Source: an uncultured Bacilli bacterium (GTDB taxonomy: Bacteria > Bacillota_I > Bacilli_A > RF39 > UBA660). From it: DNA of 64,000 nt. Positions 1,278 to 58,908 of this stretch are shown piece by piece; the first letter of the stretch is position 1; each line of letters starts with the position of its first letter. Where the stretch lies: the NCBI GenBank assembly GCA_934096405.1, contig CAKOLW010000003.1, forward strand, positions 3,282 through 67,281, in the 5' to 3' direction. Below the pieces are notes generated by a model. That model was not told where the DNA came from and did not search any database. It saw only the letters and a list, made by a program, of their open reading frames with translations. The position numbers and the translations under genes are program-made.

Positions 1278-1554
1278 TAATAATTTTATTGATCCATTTT
1301 ATACTTTATATAATGTTATAGATTTACATGGATTTGATAAAGAATATGCTTTATTTAAGGTAAATGAATTTATTAGTGATAGTCTTAAATTAAAAAAGTA
1401 TGACTTAATTATAATTCATGGAAAAGGGACTGGTGTATTAAAGAATTCTATACATGAGTTTTTAAAACACGATAAAAGAGTTATTGAATATAAAATTGAT
1501 AATTATAATGATGGACAAACTATAGTTAGGTTAGGTGAAATAAATGAAAAATAA
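1252..1554 (+). CDS. Smr (small MutS-related) domain protein
   Basis: IDLHG...IIIHGKGTGVLK is the typical Smr domain pattern. It overlaps both neighbouring genes, which suggests translational coupling. Confidence 0.7.
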   Translation: MKYMKKINNNNFIDPFYTLYNVIDLHGFDKEYALFKVNEFISDSLKLKKYDLIIIHGKGTGVLKNSIHEFLKHDKRVIEYKIDNYNDGQTIVRLGEINEK

Positions 1555-2998
1555 AAATGGTTTTACATTAGTTGAATTGCTAGCAGTTATTGCTTTAATA
1601 GGAGTAATAATGCTTTTAGTAGCACCTAAAGTTATTAATGTATTTAATGATAGTAAAAAAACTGCTTTTTATGATGAAGTAGTTAGTTTATATAACAATG
1701 CTTATACAACTTATGCTAGTAGATTATCAGAAGGTGATACAAGTAAAAGATATTGTTTAGGAGAAGATGAAACTTTAAATAAGTTAGAAATAAAAGATAA
1801 GAATAATTTTTATTATGATATACAATTAAATAATGAAGGAAAAGTAATAAAAATTAAAGTTAAAAATAAGAATTATAATATTTCTATATCTAATAGTAAT
1901 GGATTAGACAAAAGTGATATAAAAGTTGAAAGTGTTCAAGTTAATGATAAAACTCAATATTTAAATTGTAGTGGAGAGGGATTAACTTTGACACAAACTT
2001 TGTTAAGAGATAATCCAATAGTAAGTGAAAGAACTGATTTTTCACCATATCATGATGAGCCTATCGAAAATGGAACAATTTATAAAACTAATGAAACAGA
2101 AGATGGAAGTATAGTATATTATTACTATGGTAATATAAACAACAATTGGTTTAAGTTTGCTAATTATTATTGGCGAATAATAAGAACTAATGAAAATGGT
2201 GGAATAAGGTTATTATTTGTAGGAAAGAACCATGATACAATTGATGATAGTAAATTGTATAGTACTACTAGAAAATATAAAGATTTAACTGGTATTTCTT
2301 CTGATCCAATGTATGTTGGATTTATGTATGGAACAAGTGGGTCTTTAGAAAATAATAGAACAAATGAAAACATTAGTACTATATTAGAAGAGTTAGAATC
2401 ATGGTATGAAAAAAATATTTCATATAAATATGAAAAGTATATTAGTATGGATGCAATTTATTGTAATGATAGAAGCATTGGTAGTGGTACTTATTCTACT
2501 TCTTCATCCGATTATTTCAGATATGGTGCTTCTGTTAGATTATCTAATAAAACGCCTTCTTATAAATGTGGAGGAAATGGTAATGGTGGTACATTTGCTA
2601 CTGCCGGTGATGCTGATAAGTTTAGTGTAAGTAAAGCTTCAGGAGGAAATGGAGAATTAATTTACCCAATTGCTTTAATAACTTTAGATGAAATAGTTTT
2701 TGCTGGTGGTCCATATCCAAATGTTTGGTATTTTAGTACAAGTACTGGAAATACTTTGATTGAATATTATTCTTGGTGGACTATGACACCTATTAATTGG
2801 AACAATGGAAATTCAAGAGTAGCAGCAATTAATGGTGCAATTTATCCGGGAAGTTTCTCTAGTTTAAACATTGATTCTTCAGGAGGAGATTTGGCTGTTA
2901 TGAGACCTGTAATTTCACTAGATAAATGTGTTAAATTAAATGGTACTGGAACTGCAACTGATCCTTATGTCGTTGATGAAGATGCTAGTACTTGTTAG
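1544..2998 (+). CDS. Paralog P1: type IV prepilin-leader protein carrying the conserved YWRIIRTN...VRPVISL...STC core
   Basis: N-terminus MKNKNGFTLVELLAVIALIGVIM is a class III prepilin signal (G|FTLVE with Glu at +5). The rest aligns with 7 other ORFs in the window (LRDNP, NNWFKF, YWRIIRTNENGG, YVGFMYG, AIYCNDRS, YPIALITLDE, WWTMTP, MRPVISLDKC, DPYVVDEDASTC). Confidence 0.85.
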   Translation: MKNKNGFTLVELLAVIALIGVIMLLVAPKVINVFNDSKKTAFYDEVVSLYNNAYTTYASRLSEGDTSKRYCLGEDETLNKLEIKDKNNFYYDIQLNNEGKVIKIKVKNKNYNISISNSNGLDKSDIKVESVQVNDKTQYLNCSGEGLTLTQTLLRDNPIVSERTDFSPYHDEPIENGTIYKTNETEDGSIVYYYYGNINNNWFKFANYYWRIIRTNENGGIRLLFVGKNHDTIDDSKLYSTTRKYKDLTGISSDPMYVGFMYGTSGSLENNRTNENISTILEELESWYEKNISYKYEKYISMDAIYCNDRSIGSGTYSTSSSDYFRYGASVRLSNKTPSYKCGGNGNGGTFATAGDADKFSVSKASGGNGELIYPIALITLDEIVFAGGPYPNVWYFSTSTGNTLIEYYSWWTMTPINWNNGNSRVAAINGAIYPGSFSSLNIDSSGGDLAVMRPVISLDKCVKLNGTGTATDPYVVDEDASTC

Positions 2999-3008
2999 GA
3001 GGTATTGA

Positions 3009-4418
3009 ATGAAGAAAAGTAAAAAAGGATTTACATTGGTTGAACTATTAGCAGTTATTGCTTTAATAGGAGTAATTATGCTAATAGTTGCACCTAATGT
3101 TATAAGATTGTTTAAAAAGGGAACTAAGTCTGCATTTAAAAATGAAGTATTAACTATATATAATAGTGTGTATCCTACATATTTATCAAGAACTAGTGAT
3201 GGAGATTATTCAACTAGGTTTTGTTTTACACATGGTATAGGTGATTCATTGGATGTAGAAAATAAAGAAAATATTTCTTATGACATTTCTATTGATGATG
3301 ATGGTAATATAACAAAATTTACTGTTATTAATGATGATTATGTATTTAAAGGAAATAAAATTACTAAAAAAGATATTAAATCAAATAATATTAAAGAAAA
3401 AACTAATAGTGATGTAATAATATGTGATAATATACCTTTAACATTGTCACAAGCAATGTTGAGAGATAATCCGACAAGAAACGTAAGAAGTAATAATGAT
3501 GATATAACTGACTTTGTAGGACTATTTACTGAGAATACTACTGGGACATTGTTTACTTCAACAGAAAGTATAAGTGGAATAACTGATGTGCCACAAGAAG
3601 TATACTATTATGCTGGAAATACAACAAATAACTGGGTAAAATTCGGAGGATTTTACTGGAGAATAATAAGAACAAATCATGATGGAAGTGTAAGATTACT
3701 TTACTCCGGAACAAGCTCTGATACAACAAACGGTTATATTGGAACAAGTGCATATAATAGTTCAGCTAATAGCACAAAATATGCGGGATATAAGTATGGA
3801 GAAGATACTTCTTATGATACAATGACAAATAATACAATAGATAGTACAGTAAAAACATATATAGATGCATGGTATAAAAATAATTTAACAAATTATACAA
3901 AATACTTGAGTACAAGTGCAGTATATTGTAATGATAGAGGTATAAGTGGAATATATTCAGCAAGTACTAGATATTATTATGAATCATATACAAGAGCATA
4001 TTCATATTTAACACCAACTTATGATTGTTATAATCAAAAAGATGCGTTTAGTGTAGATAATACAAGTGCTAAATTAAATTACCCAATAGCTTTAATGACA
4101 TTTGATGAAATGTGGTTTGCTGGAAGTTGGAGAAATCCATCATGGAGTAGTCAATATGCTTGGTTACACACAAATAGTAAAGGAAATTCAATCACAGGTA
4201 ATACTAGATGGTGGTCTTTGTCACCTAATCGTTGGGATGGAAAAAATTCTTATCAGTGGAGTTGTGCTTTTGATGGTGATGCATATTTAGCAATGAGTAG
4301 TACAAACTCTAATTATGGTGTCCGTCCTGTAATATCATTAAAATCATGTGCTAAAGTAACAGGAACAGGAACTGCTGATAATCCATATGTAGTGGATGAA
4401 AAAAATTCTTCGTGCTAA
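3009..4418 (+). CDS. Paralog P2: type IV prepilin-leader protein with the conserved core (subtype A)
   Basis: MKKSKKGFTLVELLAVIALIGVIM prepilin leader. The core contains TGTLFTSTESISGITDVPQEVYYYAGNTTNNWVKFG, YWRIIRTNHDGSVRLLY, AVYCNDRG, YPIALMTFDE, WWSLSP, VRPVISLKSC and NPYVVDEKNSSC. Confidence 0.85.
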   Translation: MKKSKKGFTLVELLAVIALIGVIMLIVAPNVIRLFKKGTKSAFKNEVLTIYNSVYPTYLSRTSDGDYSTRFCFTHGIGDSLDVENKENISYDISIDDDGNITKFTVINDDYVFKGNKITKKDIKSNNIKEKTNSDVIICDNIPLTLSQAMLRDNPTRNVRSNNDDITDFVGLFTENTTGTLFTSTESISGITDVPQEVYYYAGNTTNNWVKFGGFYWRIIRTNHDGSVRLLYSGTSSDTTNGYIGTSAYNSSANSTKYAGYKYGEDTSYDTMTNNTIDSTVKTYIDAWYKNNLTNYTKYLSTSAVYCNDRGISGIYSASTRYYYESYTRAYSYLTPTYDCYNQKDAFSVDNTSAKLNYPIALMTFDEMWFAGSWRNPSWSSQYAWLHTNSKGNSITGNTRWWSLSPNRWDGKNSYQWSCAFDGDAYLAMSSTNSNYGVRPVISLKSCAKVTGTGTADNPYVVDEKNSSC

Positions 4419-28308: not shown

Positions 28309-29622
28309 ATGAATAAAAGTATTGATGAATTAATTTCTTATGTAGAAAAACTACCTAAATCTAAAACTTATCGTGAATGTATAAGTAATTTAAATTTAAT
28401 AGTTAAATATATAGAAGAAAATAATTTAATTATAACACCTGAAATATTTATGAGTATATTAAATAATAATAAATTTAATTATATAATTAAAACTGTGGTA
28501 GAAAGTAATTTCTTTGCTATTAAAGAGAATAAATTAGATATGATATTTAGTAATTCTACAATTATTTCTTTAATAGAACTTTATTGTATGCTTAATAATG
28601 TAGAGATAGAAGAATATAGTGAAAAAATAAAAGAAGATGCACTAGTTTATAATGGAGATACGGATGATTCTTTAACTATATATTTAAATAGTATTAATTT
28701 ACCTTTATTATCTATAAATGAAGAAAGAAGATTAGGATACTTAGTTTTACAGGGAGACCAAAAAGCAAGAAAGAAATTAATTGAACATAATTTAAGATTA
28801 GTTGTTTCTATTGCTAAACAATATTGTGGTAAGTCTGCATTAAGTATGCTTGATTTAATACAAGAAGGAAATATAGGACTTATGACTGCTGTAGATAAAT
28901 ATGATGTTACTAAAGAAATAAGATTTTCTACTTATGCTACTTGGTGGATTAAACAAAGTATATCAAGAGCTAGTTATGAAAAAGGTAGAAATATTAGAAT
29001 TCCTGTTCATAAAGTTGATGGTTTATCAAAATATAAAAGAGCTAAAGAAAGATTATTACAAGAAGTGGGAGAAGATTTAACTTTAAAAGATATAGCAGCT
29101 AAATTAGGTATTACTTTAGATGAAGCTTTAGAATATGAAAGATTATTTAATGATACTTTGAGTGCTAATGATTATATTGCTGAAGATTCAGATATTAGTG
29201 TATTAGATACAATAACTGATGAAAAAGATGATATAGAAAATATTTATTTCAAATATGATATGATAAGTTCTGTTGATGAATTTTTGGAAAGTAGTAATTT
29301 AACTGATAATGAAAAGTATGTTGTAATAAATAGATACGGAATAAATAAAAATAGAGAAAAAACGTTAGAAGAAATTGGTAAAACTTTAAATGTTACTAGA
29401 GAAAGAGTTAGACAAATGGAAAATAAAGCTTTAATAAAATTAGTTAGAAATGCAAATAATGTGTCTTTAGCAGATTATTTTGATAATGCAGAAGAAATAA
29501 AAGAAAGACTTAAATATATAAGGCAAAAAATTAGAACTAATAATTGTACTTCAAAAATAGAAAATTTGCATAAAGAAGCTACAAGAGTATTAAAAACTGA
29601 AGGTGGTAAATATGAATTATAA
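28309..29622 (+). CDS. RpoD-like sigma-70 family factor with long N- and C-terminal extensions
   Basis: Regions 1.2-2.4 ([50 protein letters not shown]), region 3, and region 4.2 (TLEEIGKTLNVTRERVRQMENKALIKL). About 130 aa at the N-terminus and about 60 aa at the C-terminus are unassigned. Confidence 0.8.
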   Translation: MNKSIDELISYVEKLPKSKTYRECISNLNLIVKYIEENNLIITPEIFMSILNNNKFNYIIKTVVESNFFAIKENKLDMIFSNSTIISLIELYCMLNNVEIEEYSEKIKEDALVYNGDTDDSLTIYLNSINLPLLSINEERRLGYLVLQGDQKARKKLIEHNLRLVVSIAKQYCGKSALSMLDLIQEGNIGLMTAVDKYDVTKEIRFSTYATWWIKQSISRASYEKGRNIRIPVHKVDGLSKYKRAKERLLQEVGEDLTLKDIAAKLGITLDEALEYERLFNDTLSANDYIAEDSDISVLDTITDEKDDIENIYFKYDMISSVDEFLESSNLTDNEKYVVINRYGINKNREKTLEEIGKTLNVTRERVRQMENKALIKLVRNANNVSLADYFDNAEEIKERLKYIRQKIRTNNCTSKIENLHKEATRVLKTEGGKYEL

Positions 29623-30468: not shown

Positions 30469-30497
30469 AAAAGTAGTTGTAATAGACTACTTTTTTT
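30469..30497 (+). terminator. Intrinsic terminator, homologous to the polC terminator
   Basis: AAAAGTAGT-tgtaatag-ACTACTTTTTTT. Confidence 0.8.
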
Positions 30498-30502
30498 GAT
30501 AA

Positions 30503-30690
30503 AATTAAAGAGTAAAAAGTAGAAGGAGTACAGAACTATGGAAAGAATAATTCTCTTTGATTTAAGTACCAAACTTGGTACGAATTTCGGGGGGGGTTAA
30601 AAATAATGCCTCTCATAGTTTTTTCGTTATATTAAATTCATAGGCATCAGTCTATGAGTTTTTTAGTGCTCTAAAAAATGGAGGCAAAAG
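30503..30690 (+). promoter_or_regulatory. Conserved 5' leader L1 of paralog P4: short ORF, G8 tract and two terminator-like hairpins
   Basis: TGATAAAAT extended -10 at 30497..30505. The conserved box AATTAAAGAGTAAAAAGTAGAAGGAG precedes a 20-codon ORF at 30538..30600 (MERIILFDLSTKLGTNFGGG). G8 lies at 30589..30596. Hairpin 1 ends CTCATAG plus T6 (30612..30624). Hairpin 2 is TCATAG-gcatcagt-CTATGA plus T6 (30638..30664). The 5' and 3' parts are near-identical to 58724..58908. Confidence 0.6.
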
Positions 30691-32211
30691 ATGAAGGAAA
30701 GAAAATATGCTTTGTTTGGAATAATTACAACAATAATTTTAATAATTGGAACTACACTAGCATACTTTAAATTTCAAGTATTTGGAAATAAAAAAGTAAT
30801 AAATGTGGAATCAACTAACTTACAAATAATATTTAATAATGGAGATAGTACATTTGAAGGAAATGCTTTAGAACCAGGTAATTATGATGAAATAAAGACA
30901 TTTAGTGTTAAAAACGAAACAGATACAGAGTTTAAATATAATATAATAATAAAAGATTTAATAAATACATTTGTAACAAAAGGTTATTTAGTATATAAAA
31001 TAACTAATACATCAAATAATGGAGGATACAGTATGAATGATTTTGAAGATATACCAAAATCATCAATAGCTTTAGATATAGGACTAGCATATAATATAAC
31101 TATTCCATCAGGAGTAACACAGGATTATACTATAGAGATAAAGTATTTAAATGATCCAAGTTATGATCAATCAGATGATATGGAAAAAGAAGTATCAGGA
31201 AGTATTTATATAGCAAAAGGAACAGAACCAACATTTATAACAAAAATATTAGAACAGAATAAAACAATAAGTGAAAGAACTAATTTTAAAGTAACTAATA
31301 CAGATAAAACAACAGGAACAATATATAAAACAAATAAAACAGAAGACTCTAGTGATGTATATTATTATTCAGGTAATACAATAAATAACTGGGTTAAGTT
31401 TGGAAAGTATACAACGGATGATACTTCAAGTAAAAAATTATGGAAATCTGGAGACGATATGTACTGGAGAATAATAAGAACCAATGAAGATGGGAGTGTA
31501 AGACTATTATATTCTGGAACAAGTCCAGATACAACAGAAGGCTATATAGGAACCTCAGCATTTAATAATTCAACTAAAGATCCATTGTATGTAGGTTATA
31601 TGTATGGAACAAGTGGTTCATTAGAAAGTAATAGAACAAATGAAAATGATAGTACAATAAAAACTGTAATTGACAAGTGGTATCAAAATAATTTACTAAA
31701 TGATTATGATAAATATATAAGTAAATCAGCAATATATTGTAATGATAGAAATGCTAGTAATTATGCTTTAGAAGGAACATATTATTCTAGCGCATACAAT
31801 AGAATTGAACAAGGATCGCCTACTTTAAAATGCGAAAATAAAAGTGATTCATTTAGTTATAATAATACAAGTGCAAAATTAAAATATCCTATAGCATTAG
31901 TAACTACAGATGAATTAAATTTTGCTGGAGGATATCTACTTAGAGCTGAAGGCATTTATTTTACAGTTAATAGTAATAATCTTTCAATTACTAATACACT
32001 ATTTTGGTGGACAATGAGTCCTTGGGGACTATACACTACGATAGCAGATACCTTCAGAGTAAAAGATACAGGAGTAATAAATGGAAACAATGTTTCATTT
32101 TTATTTGCAGTTAGACCTGTTATATCTGTATCATCATGTGCAAGAGTTAAATCAGGTAATGGAACAGCAGATAATCCATATGTAGTAGATGAAGAAGCTA
32201 GCACTTGCTAG
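30691..32211 (+). CDS. Paralog P4: TasA/SipW-type signal plus N-terminal domain plus conserved core (mosaic subtype)
   Basis: Signal IIGTTLAYFKFQVFG. The core has TGTIYKTNKTEDSSDVYYYSGNTINNWVKFG, YWRIIRTNEDGSVRLLY, YVGYMYGTSGSLESNRTNEN, AIYCNDRN, YPIALVTTDE, WWTMSP, VRPVISVSSC and NPYVVDEEASTC. Confidence 0.85.
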   Translation: MKERKYALFGIITTIILIIGTTLAYFKFQVFGNKKVINVESTNLQIIFNNGDSTFEGNALEPGNYDEIKTFSVKNETDTEFKYNIIIKDLINTFVTKGYLVYKITNTSNNGGYSMNDFEDIPKSSIALDIGLAYNITIPSGVTQDYTIEIKYLNDPSYDQSDDMEKEVSGSIYIAKGTEPTFITKILEQNKTISERTNFKVTNTDKTTGTIYKTNKTEDSSDVYYYSGNTINNWVKFGKYTTDDTSSKKLWKSGDDMYWRIIRTNEDGSVRLLYSGTSPDTTEGYIGTSAFNNSTKDPLYVGYMYGTSGSLESNRTNENDSTIKTVIDKWYQNNLLNDYDKYISKSAIYCNDRNASNYALEGTYYSSAYNRIEQGSPTLKCENKSDSFSYNNTSAKLKYPIALVTTDELNFAGGYLLRAEGIYFTVNSNNLSITNTLFWWTMSPWGLYTTIADTFRVKDTGVINGNNVSFLFAVRPVISVSSCARVKSGNGTADNPYVVDEEASTC

Positions 32212-42932: not shown

Positions 42933-43220
42933 ATGGAAAGTTTAACAACAGCTATAAGTGTACAAGTAGATAGACAAGACAAAGAATTAGCAACTGGTAT
43001 TTTAAGCAATTTAGGGTTAAATATGAGTACATATGTTAATATGGCTATAAAACAATTAATTAATAAAAATGGTGTACCTTTTGAAATAGTAAATCCTAAA
43101 CCAAGTAAAGAATTATTGGAGGCTTTAAAAGAGGGTGAAGATATACTAAGTGGAAAAGTAAAAACGAAAGGCTACCATAACATAAAGGAAATGTTTGAGG
43201 ATATTTTAAATGAAGATTGA
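42933..43220 (+). CDS. Type II antitoxin, RelB/DinJ family
   Basis: ISVQVDRQDKELATGILSNLGLNMSTYVNMAIKQL has the ribbon-helix-helix pattern of DinJ. It overlaps the toxin start. Confidence 0.8.
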   Translation: MESLTTAISVQVDRQDKELATGILSNLGLNMSTYVNMAIKQLINKNGVPFEIVNPKPSKELLEALKEGEDILSGKVKTKGYHNIKEMFEDILNED

Positions 43221-43518
43221 TGTTGGAAATACTTACTATGAAGTTAAAACAACTTCAAGATTTAATAAAGAATTAAAGAAGTTATATAAGCAACACAAAG
43301 ATATTAACAAGTTAATTGAAGTTGTGGAGACTTTAGCAAACGGAGAAGAATTATCAGAAAAATACAAAAATCATAAACTAATAAATGATAAAACATTTAA
43401 AGAGTGTTATGAGTGTCATATACAACCTGACTGGCTATTAGTTTATAAAGTACAAAATAATGAATTAGTATTATTACTTTTTGCAACTGGTAGTCATAGC
43501 GATTTATTTAATAAATAG
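43210..43518 (+). CDS. Type II toxin, YafQ/RelE family mRNA interferase
   Basis: FNKELKKL...HKL...ECHIQPDWLLVYKV...LVLLLFATGSHSDLF is the YafQ-type signature. Confidence 0.8.
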   Translation: MKIDVGNTYYEVKTTSRFNKELKKLYKQHKDINKLIEVVETLANGEELSEKYKNHKLINDKTFKECYECHIQPDWLLVYKVQNNELVLLLFATGSHSDLFNK

Positions 43519-49954: not shown

Positions 49955-51679
49955 ATGACATTTATTAATGATGAAACAATAAATAGAATTAGAAGAGAGA
50001 ATAATATAGTAGATGTTGTAGGTAGTTATATACCTCTAACTAAAAAAGGAAAAAACTATTTTGCTGTATGTCCATTTCATGATGATCATTCTCCATCAAT
50101 GTCTATAAGCGAAGAAAAACAAATATATAGATGCTTTGTATGTGGAGCAAGTGGTAATGTTATATCATTTGTCAAAGATTATGAAAAAGTCAGTTTTAAA
50201 GAAGCTTTAGAAATATTAGGTAAAAGAATAGGACTTGATATAAAAAGTGATGATAAGAAAGTAAATACTCCTTATAAAGGGTTTTATGATATATATAATG
50301 TTTATAAAGATTATTATAAAAATAATTTGTATTCTATAAAAGGTAAAAATGCTAGAGAATATTTATTAAATAGAAAATTAGATAAAGAAACAATAGATTA
50401 TTTTGATATCGGTTTATCTTTAGATGGAGAATTATCTAAGAGTATAGTAAATAAGTATGATAGAAATAAATTAGTTGATTTGGGATTATGTAGTAATGAC
50501 CTGAAAGATTTATTTCATAATAGAATTATGTTTACTATTAAAGATAATGATGGCAATACTGTTGCTTTTAGTGGAAGAAAGTATACTGAAATTGATGCTC
50601 CAAAATATATTAATAGTAAAGAGACTGTTATATTTAAAAAAGGTAGCATTTTATATAATTTATGTAATTCTAAAGAATATATAAGAAAAAGTAAAGAGAT
50701 AATTATAAGTGAAGGATTTATGGAAGTAATCAGGTTACATACTATAGGAATAGATAATACTGTTGCTTTGATGGGAACTAGTTTTACTAAGGAACACTTA
50801 AATATTATTAAAAATCTTAAATGTAATGTAGTACTAAATTTAGATCAGGATGAGGCTGGTAAGACGGCTACTATATTGATTGGAGATATGCTTGTTAAGA
50901 ATGGAATTGATCCTACTGTTATAATATTTAGTAAATATAAAGATGCAGATGAGTTAATAAGTAATCTTGGAGAAGATTCATTTAAGGAAGCATATAAGTC
51001 TAGAGTTAATTTTATAGATTTTAAATTAAATTATCTTAAGAAAAATAAAGATTTAAGTAATTCTGAAGATTTAAGTAAATATATAAGAGAAAGTATAGAT
51101 GCTATTAATTTAATAGATGATGATATATTAAGAGATATTAAGATTAAGGAACTTTCTAAGACATATGATATAAGTGAAGATGTTATTAGAAACAAAATAA
51201 CTAATAATAATGTTATAGAAAGAAAAGAGAAACCTAAAGTAGTTAAAAAGAATATTAAATATGATAAATTTGATGTAAGTGAAATAAGATTGTTATATTT
51301 AATGATGAATAATCCGGAGTTAATAAAATATTATGAAATTAATTTAGGATATTTAAATGATAGCAATAGAAAGTTACTTGCTGATGCAATTATAAATTTT
51401 AAAAATAGAAATAAAGTATTTGACTTAGGGGATTTTATTTGTTACACTATGCAAGTGGAAGAACTTGATAAAGTTTTTAAGAGTGTTATGGAATATCATA
51501 ATATTGATAATTATACTATGGATGAGGTAGATGATTATATTAATGTTATAAAAAAGAAAAAAGTAGATGAACAAGTTAATAAACTTAAAGACAAGATGAA
51601 AAATACAATAGATATAAATGAGAAAAAGAAGTTAGCTAGTAAGATTGAAAATATTAAGAGGGAAGTGTTAAAATGGTAA
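49955..51679 (+). CDS. dnaG: DNA primase
   Basis: Zn-ribbon [13 protein letters not shown]...[15 protein letters not shown] domain ([20 protein letters not shown]). Confidence 0.95.
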
Positions 51680-52770
51680 ATGAATTAAAAACATTTGAAG
51701 AAATATTAAATGATTTAGTTAGTGAAGGAAAAAAACAAGGTTATTTAACTTATGAGCAAATTGCTAAAAAAACTAGTAGTTTAGAGTTAGATAGTAATAA
51801 TCTAGATGAACTTTATAATGTATTAAGTGAGAATCAAATTGAAGTTAGAAGTGAAGATGAAGGAGATACTGATGATACTTTAGCATTAGAAGAACCGGAA
51901 CTTAATATAGAAACTATAAGTAATGAAAGCAAAGATATGTCAGTTAATGACAATGTAAGAATGTATTTAAAAGATATTGGTAAAATTAGCTTACTTAGTT
52001 TAGAAGAAGAGCAAGAATTAAGTCATAGAATAGCTAACGGAGATGAAGAAGCTAAGAAGATACTTGCTGAATCTAACTTAAGATTAGTTGTTAGTATTGC
52101 TAAAAGATATGTAGGACGTGGATTATTATTCTTAGATTTAATTCAAGAAGGTAATATTGGACTTATGAAGGCAGTAGATAAGTTTGATTTTGAAAAGGGA
52201 TTTAAGTTTAGTACTTATGCTACTTGGTGGGTTAGACAAGCAATTACAAGAGCTTTAGCTGATCAAGCAAGAACAATAAGAGTTCCTGTACATATGGTTG
52301 AAACTATTAATAAGATGGCAAGAATTGAAAGACAAATGGCCCTTGATTTAAATCGTGAACCTACTGATGAAGAATTAGCTAAAAAGATGGGATTAACTTT
52401 AGATAAGATAGTAGAAATTAGAAAGATTGGACAAGATCCAGTTAGTTTAGAAACACCAATTGGTGAAGAGGATGATTCTCATTTAGGTGATTTCTTAGCT
52501 GACAAAGATACTATGAGTCCAGAAGAAGCAGCTACTTATGAATCTTTAAAAGAAGAACTTAAAAAAGTATTACAAACACTTACTAAAAGAGAAGAAGAAG
52601 TTTTAGAGTTAAGATTTGGTTTATATGATGGAACATGTCATACTTTGGAAGAAGTTGGTAAAAAATTTGGTGTTACTAGAGAAAGAATTAGACAAATAGA
52701 AGCTAAAGCACTTCGTAAGTTAAGACATCCTAGTCGTGCTAAAAAGTTAAAGGATTTCTTAGTTGACTAG
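51673..52770 (+). CDS. rpoD: Primary sigma factor RpoD/SigA
   Basis: Regions 1.1-4.2 are present: [83 protein letters not shown]. Confidence 0.97.
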
Positions 52771-58676: not shown

Positions 58677-58723
58677 TTATTTTTTGATACAAAATACTTG
58701 AACTCAATAAGATATTTTGGTAG

Positions 58724-58908
58724 AATTAAAGAGTAAAAAGTAGAAGGAGCACAAAACTATGGGGCAAATAGATTTCTTTCATAATAAAACAATAGTTTGT
58801 TATGGGGGGGTCAGTATTATTAACTAACTCCCATAGTTTTTTCGTTATATTAAATTCATGGGCACCAGTCTATGAGTTTTTTAGTGCTCTAAAAATGGAG
58901 GAAAGACA
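58724..58908 (+). promoter_or_regulatory. Conserved 5' leader L2 of paralog P8: short ORF, G7 tract and two terminator-like hairpins
   Basis: TGGTAGAAT extended -10 at 58718..58726. It has the same conserved box as L1. A 22-codon ORF lies at 58759..58827 (MGQIDFFHNKTIVCYGGVSIIN). G7 is at 58804..58810. Hairpin 1 is TATGGGGG...CTCCCATA plus GTTTTTT (to 58842). Hairpin 2 is TCATGG-gcaccagt-CTATGA plus T6 (58856..58882). Confidence 0.6.

Follow-up and report, generated by a model that had tools for sequence, protein, structure and literature searches.

What do two near-identical leaders do in front of two paralogous genes? The question is raised by a 64-kb chromosomal stretch from an uncultured Bacilli bacterium (contig CAKOLW010000003.1; hereafter the window, meaning the whole of the DNA analyzed), a Firmicute sequence with 26% GC and nearly all genes on the + strand. 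Here the leaders L1 (30503-30690) and L2 (58724-58908) share a near-identical 5' box and a 75-nt 3' part and directly precede the paralogs P1 (30691-32211) and P2 (58909-60570, +). We propose, with a probability of roughly 0.7, that L1 and L2 each represent one copy of a phase-variable leader-peptide transcription attenuator. Three features central to this proposal are absent from the initial annotation of the locus, which had been made from the sequence alone: a small open reading frame (ORF) as the functional core of the leader, a length-polymorphic poly-G tract within it, and a tract length that sets where the ribosome would stop relative to a terminator-like stem-loop, hairpin 2.

The leader is a multi-copy element

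The initial annotation had described a leader shared by two paralogs, and the shared element is real: the window contains each of the two boxes exactly two times, and shuffled sequences contain neither. An nhmmer search with a profile of the leader found no third copy in the window. The annotation had also failed to recognize a known riboswitch or leader class, and this assessment stands, as no Rfam family matches the leader. The sole match in the window to Rfam 15 at gathering score is a T-box at 26266-26444, and a permissive Rfam scan of L1 returned chance-level matches only (best E 0.15).

A search for further copies and for covariation, suggested in the initial annotation, was positive on both counts. 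Further copies were sought with an nhmmer profile rather than a covariance model. While a strict DNA pattern for the 3' part of the leader had no matches in either genome or metagenome contigs, a looser version of it recovered 16 further metagenome contigs, and the profile identified about 44 distinct leader copies, of which the CAKOLN metagenome-assembled genome (MAG) by itself accounts for at least 20; the compensatory changes detected in hairpin 2 are described below. A protein-guided scan of species-representative genomes revealed expansions of the paralog family in the related uncultured Bacilli MAGs CAKOLN01, CAKORV01 and CAMENK01. Contigs of the same species as the window were obtained from human-gut metagenomes, including Hadza samples, via the exact sequences of IF3, a CotZ-like protein and the sigma factor, and are 98.6% identical to the window over a conserved stretch running from the 3' end of P1 through infC-rplT. 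Exact-protein look-ups of P0001, of the 285-aa upstream ORF and of P2 returned no record.

Structure and conservation statistics were computed on 43 aligned leader copies, and G/C runs and their context were counted over 570 kb comprising the window and related loci. All copy numbers are lower bounds, given that the leader cassette fragments assemblies. In the metagenomes, contig ends frequently fall in or at the leader (the tails of L017 and L068, the ends of L014 and L015), with L068 stopping 1 nt before the G run.

Each leader carries its own promoter and a small ORF

The 5' box reported in the initial annotation is indeed shared sequence, and it actually comprises an extended -10 element, a 5' untranslated region, a Shine-Dalgarno sequence and the start codon of a small ORF. 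A consensus scan places the L1 promoter at 30477-30505 (+), with a -35 element TTGTAA at 30477-30482, a 17-nt spacer and an extended -10 element TGaTAAAAT ending at 30505, from which transcription would start at about 30512. The L2 promoter (58698-58726, +) combines TTGAAC, a 17-nt spacer and TGgTAGAAT, and the same TTGAAT/TTGAAC-17-TGnTAnAAT arrangement is kept upstream of about 30 leader copies at other loci. Some 20 nt downstream of the -10 element lies the small-ORF Shine-Dalgarno sequence GAAGGAG, found at 30522-30528 (+) in L1, where the ATG (30538) follows 9 nt on, and at 58743-58749 (+) in L2, upstream of the ATG at 58759. Across the aligned copies AAGGAG and CTATG are nearly invariant, and promoter, Shine-Dalgarno sequence and ATG are kept in all of them.

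In the G8 phase of L1, the small ORF (30538-30600, +) would encode MERIILFDLSTKLGTNFGGG and end at a TAA at 30598-30600; in the G7 phase of L2 (58759-58827, +), it would encode MGQIDFFHNKTIVCYGGVSIIN and end at a TAA at 58825-58827. Both are predicted to be short, OFF frames. The main gene has its own initiation signals, which for P1 consist of a GGAGG Shine-Dalgarno sequence and the ATG at 30691 (30680-30693, +).

The stretches of about 70 nt between the shared parts had been described as unrelated. L1-type (A) and L2-type (B) cores do differ from each other, but a small ORF and a poly-G run are common to both, and each is conserved across species; a third type is represented by the L045 core. 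The metagenome contig L017 (tail, about 2530-2627) carries an L1-type core at the L2 locus, and cores have therefore been exchanged between loci.

Small ORFs and main genes alike start with ATGAAAGAA. At the paralog P3 (37600-37645, +), the same extended -10 promoter is followed by an AGGAG..AAACTATG box fused to the gene's own start codon. The promoter that the initial annotation assigned to P3 is thus confirmed, and P3, described there as lacking the element, does carry this box. These observations suggest that the leader small ORF arose by duplication of the 5' end of a paralog, or that P3 lost its leader. P5 begins 15 nt after P4, and the region upstream of P4 presents no obvious 5' box.

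Hairpin 2 covaries and a long-range helix is almost invariant

The two leaders are strongly structured (z -4.6 and -4.2), and their predicted folds consist of a core hairpin, a long-range helix between two segments designated arms A and B that is followed by a T run, and hairpin 2 followed by U6. In L1, arm A (GAACTATGG, 30533-30541, +) contains the start codon of the small ORF and pairs with arm B (TCATAGTTT, 30613-30621), as indicated by the folds, RNAalifold and pair counts; arm B and the first T6 (30619-30624) together span 30613-30624 (+). In L2, arm B (CCCATAGTTT) and its T6 (together 58830-58842, +) lie downstream of arm A (AAACTATGGG, 58754-58763), with which arm B pairs. What had been annotated as a first hairpin is hence a long-range helix of 9-10 bp that encloses the whole core. 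This A:B helix is almost invariant, with 99.7% of its positions paired and a single pair varying among AU, GU and GC. From its structure, it could possibly act as a pause site, as a weak terminator or as an occluder of the start codon.

Hairpin 2 spans 30634-30664 (+) in L1, with a 5' arm AAATTCATAGGC (30634-30645), an ATCA loop, a 3' arm GTCTATGAGTTT (30650-30661) and a T6 at 30659-30664, and 58852-58882 (+) in L2, with arms at 58852-58863 and 58868-58879, an ACCA loop and a T6 at 58877-58882. Its stem measures 12 bp with a 4-nt loop, and not the 7 bp first reported. The predicted free energy is -12.7 kcal/mol (z -6.7) in L1, -12.4 kcal/mol in L2 and -11 to -12.7 kcal/mol across copies. A stable stem-loop followed by U6 is the arrangement seen in intrinsic terminators, and we predict that hairpin 2 is one; the first three U can pair with an upstream AAA, and the U6 ends about 27 nt before the main ATG.

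Conservation of the hairpin 2 stem extends to its pairing. In the alignment 99.2% of cells are paired and three pairs have changed on both sides, with UA/CG to AU/UA co-changes in copies of the L044b, L045 and L069 types and further ones in L061. The observed covariation score was reached in none of 500 shuffles, and sliding the partners abolishes pairing. The A-to-G change in hairpin 2 of L2 preserves a G-U pair, as the initial annotation had stated and pair comparison corroborates. The same annotation had envisaged short motifs as interchangeable pairing partners, but the alignment does not support this regulatory logic, since the arms of hairpin 2 co-change while arms A and B stay constant. 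In copies of the L044b, L045 and L069 types, only 4 bp of B:D pairing and 5 bp of A:C pairing are left, and both were rejected as candidate antiterminators because neither alternative pairing is kept in the copies in which hairpin 2 covaries. Likewise discarded was a long-range interaction between the Shine-Dalgarno sequence of the small ORF and a GUGCUCU that lies downstream of hairpin 2, an interaction that the species-2 copies, judged by eye, do not keep consistently.

The poly-G tract varies in length between strains

The G tract is a G8 at 30589-30596 (+) in L1 and a G7 at 58804-58810 (+) in L2, and we propose that each serves as a slipped-strand switch. These are the sole runs of six or more G in the window. 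Over the 570 kb there are 44 runs of at least seven G or C, all of them within leader copies, where base composition would predict about 1.5 such runs in total. The G7-G9 tract makes up codons 16-20 of the small ORF, near its end, and apart from this homopolymer no tandem repeats were found in the leader.

Tract length differs between strains or samples at loci with identical flanks. A second L1 allele has G8 in L007 and L009 and G9 in L001/L006, and at the L2 locus the window shares G7 with L012, while L015, L016 and L013/L014 have G8. The L1 allele of the window has G8 also in L065, L066 and L067, which come from three samples, and L081 presents G8 where L057 has AGGGGG. An inversion switch was ruled out, as the G run and the small ORF share the same orientation in both copies.

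Tract length determines where the small ORF stops

The position of the small-ORF stop codon relative to hairpin 2 depends on the length of the tract. All 28 distinct G8 copies are in a short frame, with a stop 7-19 nt before arm B and 35-43 nt before hairpin 2, and the single G7 copy, of the L2 type, is also short, its stop lying 7 nt before arm B. All four G9 copies are in a long frame that continues across arm B and the T run to a TAG inside the 5' arm of hairpin 2 or to a TAA at its base. In L1, the G9 frame stops at the TAA at 30633-30635 and the G7/G10 frame at the TAG at 30641-30643, inside hairpin 2. Most copies carry a TAACTAA after the tract, which provides stops in two frames and leaves the third open. 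The A-to-G change in hairpin 2 of L2 removes the in-frame TAG, and in L2 with G6 or G9 the ribosome would therefore pass both hairpins and reach a TGA that overlaps with the ATG of P2. The correspondence between tract length and frame extends to three core types of unrelated sequence and to at least three species.

Copies with decayed tracts (five G or fewer; for instance AGGGGG, GGGAGGG or GGAGATGGG) bear on which frame is the expressed one. This group comprises L057:3789-3968, L025:1987-2178, L021:3814-4000, L061:2801-2962, L032:3832-4000, L079, L080, L074 and L071:10041. The long frame is present in six of eight of these copies, plus L032, and the downstream ORFs are intact where they could be checked. 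As for the two short-frame copies, the degenerate L071:10041 also lacks the start codon of the main gene, while L074 still has it. Because decayed-tract copies are mostly fixed in the long frame, their sequences point to the long frame as the expressed state.

A proposed frameshift-controlled attenuator and its alternatives

The analysis supports the initial annotation in treating the element as a transcribed leader with a conserved terminator-like hairpin and U tract at its end, and default termination with conditional read-through, as put forward there, is still the best reading of the locus. The leader is not a riboswitch, and the condition that switches it is most likely a heritable frameshift, that is, phase variation, rather than a metabolite. 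In the mechanism we propose, a sigma-A-type promoter would drive a leader of about 180 nt, and replication slippage would alter the G tract by one base and so shift the frame of the small ORF. In the short frame (G8, or G7 in L2), the ribosome would leave the transcript 35-43 nt before hairpin 2, the hairpin would form and most transcripts would end there, yielding an OFF or low state. In the long frame (G9, or G7 in L1), the ribosome would cross arm B, halt within the 5' arm of hairpin 2 or at the base of this arm, and so mask the arm while RNA polymerase, about 24 nt ahead, is on the U tract, allowing read-through into the gene (ON). Both copies in the window are in the short frame and are therefore predicted to be OFF.

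We also put forward, more tentatively and at somewhat short of even odds, that the leader is a portable, self-contained module (promoter, poly-G small ORF, start-codon-occluding helix and terminator) that has been copied and recombined before at least 20 genes of one surface-protein superfamily in a lineage of uncultured Bacilli from the human gut, and that it would give each cell a combinatorial, heritable and reversible surface repertoire. The two hairpins might then act as successive checkpoints, the first responding to whether the leader is translated and the second to the frame in which this occurs.

Several points weigh against the proposed attenuator. Termination, translation of the small ORF and the assignment of ON and OFF states are inferred, in part by analogy. 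Coupling of transcription and translation is thought to be loose in the Firmicutes, and a ribosome-blocking model therefore needs a polymerase pause. Hairpin 2 is A/U-rich, has fewer than three G-C pairs and was not called by a simple terminator scan, and the role of the A:B helix is left unexplained. For copies of the same core type, G length and frame are linked by construction, and copies from the same genome are close paralogs, so that the counts are not independent. Lastly, the differences in G length come from short-read metagenome assemblies at about 3-6x, in which homopolymers may be miscalled.

This last point is the starting position of an explanation in which the leader is constitutive, a structured 5' untranslated region or small upstream ORF that holds expression or mRNA stability at a fixed level. 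The poly-G run would then be retained for structural pairing with a pyrimidine tract (UUCUCUUU / UUUCUUUC), and the differences in its length would reflect assembly errors or neutral drift. The predicted folds do pair the G run of type A and B cores with such an upstream tract, the assemblies are of low coverage and most copies have G8. Each length state of L2, however, was recovered in two independent assemblies and G9 occurs at four different loci, the L045-type core and the L001 allele retain a G run without a pyrimidine partner, copies devoid of the run are biased to the long frame, and the staggered stops of the TAACTAA layout are conserved after the tract, all of which make a constitutive leader unlikely. 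We deem it very unlikely that the core instead senses a ligand or condition, with the CTATG/CATAG motifs swapping pairings as in a riboswitch or responsive attenuator. A sensing core was implied in the initial annotation, and the strong structure of the leader, its multiply pairable motifs and the terminator-like hairpin before the gene would suit it. No Rfam family matches, however, and at least three kinds of core with unrelated sequences exist (A, B and L045), which have only the small ORF and the G run in common and thus provide no conserved aptamer-like junction. In addition, the B:D and A:C pairings are not kept where hairpin 2 covaries, the translation start signals (Shine-Dalgarno sequence and ATG) are conserved, diverged copies have an open long frame, and a sensor leaves the upkeep of a mutable G tract unexplained.

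The conserved Shine-Dalgarno sequence and ATG would also be expected if the small ORF encoded a functional peptide, such as a double-glycine-type precursor, co-transcribed with the main gene and separated from it by ordinary inter-cistronic structures. The peptide does contain a GG(G) motif, and type A peptides resemble one another even in the diverged L061 and L032 (M-K-E-L-x-F-F-E-x-S-T/I-x-L). This reading is nonetheless highly improbable: three unrelated N-terminal peptide types occupy the same cassette, the GGG derives from the mutable tract, the "mature" part would come from the conserved helix and terminator sequence, and the cassette is found in at least 20 copies per genome, each before a surface-protein paralog. 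Multiplicity could also reflect a mobile repeat without regulatory role, akin to a miniature inverted-repeat transposable element, with the 9-bp inverted repeat AAACTATGA/TCATAGTTT that flanks the core as its ends. The fusion of the 5' box to the ATG of P3 and the swapping of core types between loci (L017) can be read in the same way. Mobility of this kind is hard to reconcile, and in our estimation scarcely credible, with a single orientation, a fixed distance of 14-28 nt between the hairpin 2 U tract and the ATG, a promoter that is always present and an association with one gene superfamily; there are no copies in other contexts in the 570 kb and no target-site duplications were seen.

The downstream genes belong to a strain-mosaic paralog family

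P1 and P2 are members of a paralog family represented in the window also by P3 (37642), P4 (44812) and P5 (47064), and by further members near 1544-4418 and 18684-20408. Where the downstream start is readable, 14-28 nt separate the U tract of hairpin 2 from the ATG, and the encoded proteins have 500-770 aa and an N-terminal hydrophobic, signal-like segment. Their N-termini ending in (S/T)(L/Y)AYF may be signal peptides of the SipW/TasA class, an unconfirmed impression. Searches of Pfam and NCBIfam assigned no family to the window paralogs, and DUF6273 (PF19789) is present in some homologues. The AlphaFold model of P1 (predicted local distance difference test score, pLDDT, 79.6) presents an N-terminal helix followed by beta-sandwich domains. 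Its matches in the PDB are weak and include beta-sandwiches resembling carbohydrate-binding modules and the TasA fibre at E 4e-3, with template modeling (TM) scores below 0.3.

P1 is mosaic between strains (window 30691-32211 versus L001 1088-2782). From the leader through approximately the first 725 nt of P1, the window and L001 are 97.5% identical, after which the sequence switches to a paralog-like one; L001 also has another paralog in place of the 285-aa upstream gene. This mosaicism is consistent with a variable surface or secreted antigen, and a large, strain-mosaic paralog family with signal-like segments is the usual kind of target for phase variation. The closest homologues of P1 in other species (P0023, P0029 and P0100) are leaderless and have a 140-aa gene 44 nt upstream instead.

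Relation to known regulatory systems

The closest precedent is the control of the pil1 and pil3 loci of Streptococcus gallolyticus, whose leader-peptide ORF contains GCAGA repeats and precedes a stem-loop terminator (Danne et al. 2014, PLoS Pathog, PMC3894217). There, a short peptide whose stop lies 28-39 nt (39 bp) upstream of the terminator results in low expression, whereas out-of-frame variants with a stop within or after the hairpin result in high expression in a translation-dependent manner, a model confirmed with ATG, stop-codon and terminator-deletion mutants (PMC3894217). The same work summarizes trp attenuation (PMC3894217). The leader described here resembles the pil1/pil3 system in placing a simple-sequence repeat in a leader ORF, followed by a stem-loop, in our case a predicted terminator, and by a surface-protein target. 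The short-frame stop is also separated from the hairpin by a comparable distance (35-43 nt, against 39 nt in S. gallolyticus), the long peptide ends in the hairpin or beside it, and the host is likewise Gram-positive and gut-associated. The repeat itself differs, with 13-22 copies of GCAGA in pil1/pil3 and a G7-G9 homopolymer here, and no GCAGA array was found in the window. Hairpin 2, at about -12 kcal/mol, is far weaker than the pil3 hairpin (-28 kcal/mol), an additional long-range helix covers the small-ORF start codon, and instead of a pilus operon the cassette precedes a paralog family in at least 20 copies per genome. On sequence grounds, the leader is analogous and not homologous to that of pil1.

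As in the pyrBI leader of E. coli and leaders of the trp/his type, read-through is predicted to depend on where the ribosome stands on the leader ORF with respect to a terminator hairpin. Those systems respond to the supply of nucleotides or charged tRNA through pausing or stalling and involve alternative antiterminator pairings. No conserved antiterminator was found in the leader copies, for which we propose a heritable frameshift instead. Furthermore, and unlike trp/his leaders, the small ORF has just two or three Gly (GGG) codons, and the downstream genes are secreted-protein paralogs with no biosynthetic match in Pfam or NCBIfam.

A length-polymorphic G tract, an AT-rich genome and variable surface-protein families are features shared with the poly-G/C contingency loci of Campylobacter, Neisseria, Haemophilus and the Treponema tpr promoters. 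In classical contingency loci the tract resides in the coding sequence of the regulated gene itself or in its promoter spacer, whereas the tract described here belongs to a distinct ORF upstream of the gene and would act via transcription termination. In Clostridioides difficile, a phase-variable event in the 5' leader of cwpV and flgB decides on premature termination before a surface-protein gene, a layout that the present leader shares. That event is a site-specific DNA inversion catalyzed by a recombinase, with neither a leader ORF nor repeat slippage, both of which form part of the mechanism proposed here.

Literature searches identified no described case of phase variation through leader-peptide frame and terminator besides S. 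gallolyticus pil1/pil3, and we regard the element as most likely a non-homologous variant of a mechanism that is known but has rarely been documented. An independent, homopolymer-based version present in at least 20 copies before a fast-evolving family of secreted proteins in uncultured gut Bacilli would establish that evolution has arrived at this logic repeatedly. It would also supply a signature for metagenome searches, consisting of a strong Shine-Dalgarno sequence, a small ORF, a homopolymer, staggered stops and a hairpin with its U tract. Gene callers and expression predictions would miss the predicted stochastic ON/OFF behavior of these genes, and the repeats break MAG assemblies exactly at the leader loci.

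Other features of the window

The remaining gene content of the window includes aspS with a T-box, infC-rpmI-rplT, eno, ileS, dnaG-sigA and topA. The T-box (RF00230, 98.4 bits; 26266-26444, +) lies directly upstream of the aspartyl-tRNA synthetase-like ORF (26477-28222). The window encodes two sigma-70 paralogs that are about 37% identical (28309-29622 and 51673-52770, +). One of them (28309-29622) has an N-terminal extension of about 120 aa and lies two genes upstream of L1; the other (51673-52770) follows dnaG and looks like the housekeeping sigma factor. Ribosomal protein L20 (33157-33687, +) carries a C-terminal Rho_N domain (Pfam E 8e-11), a fusion that is kept in L001 and L006-L008. Two overlapping small ORFs of 95 and 102 aa at 42933-43518 (+) resemble, by eye, a toxin-antitoxin pair of the RelB/YafQ type. 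Over the whole window, base composition on the + strand is asymmetric, with 17.1% G versus 8.9% C and 40.5% A versus 33.5% T.

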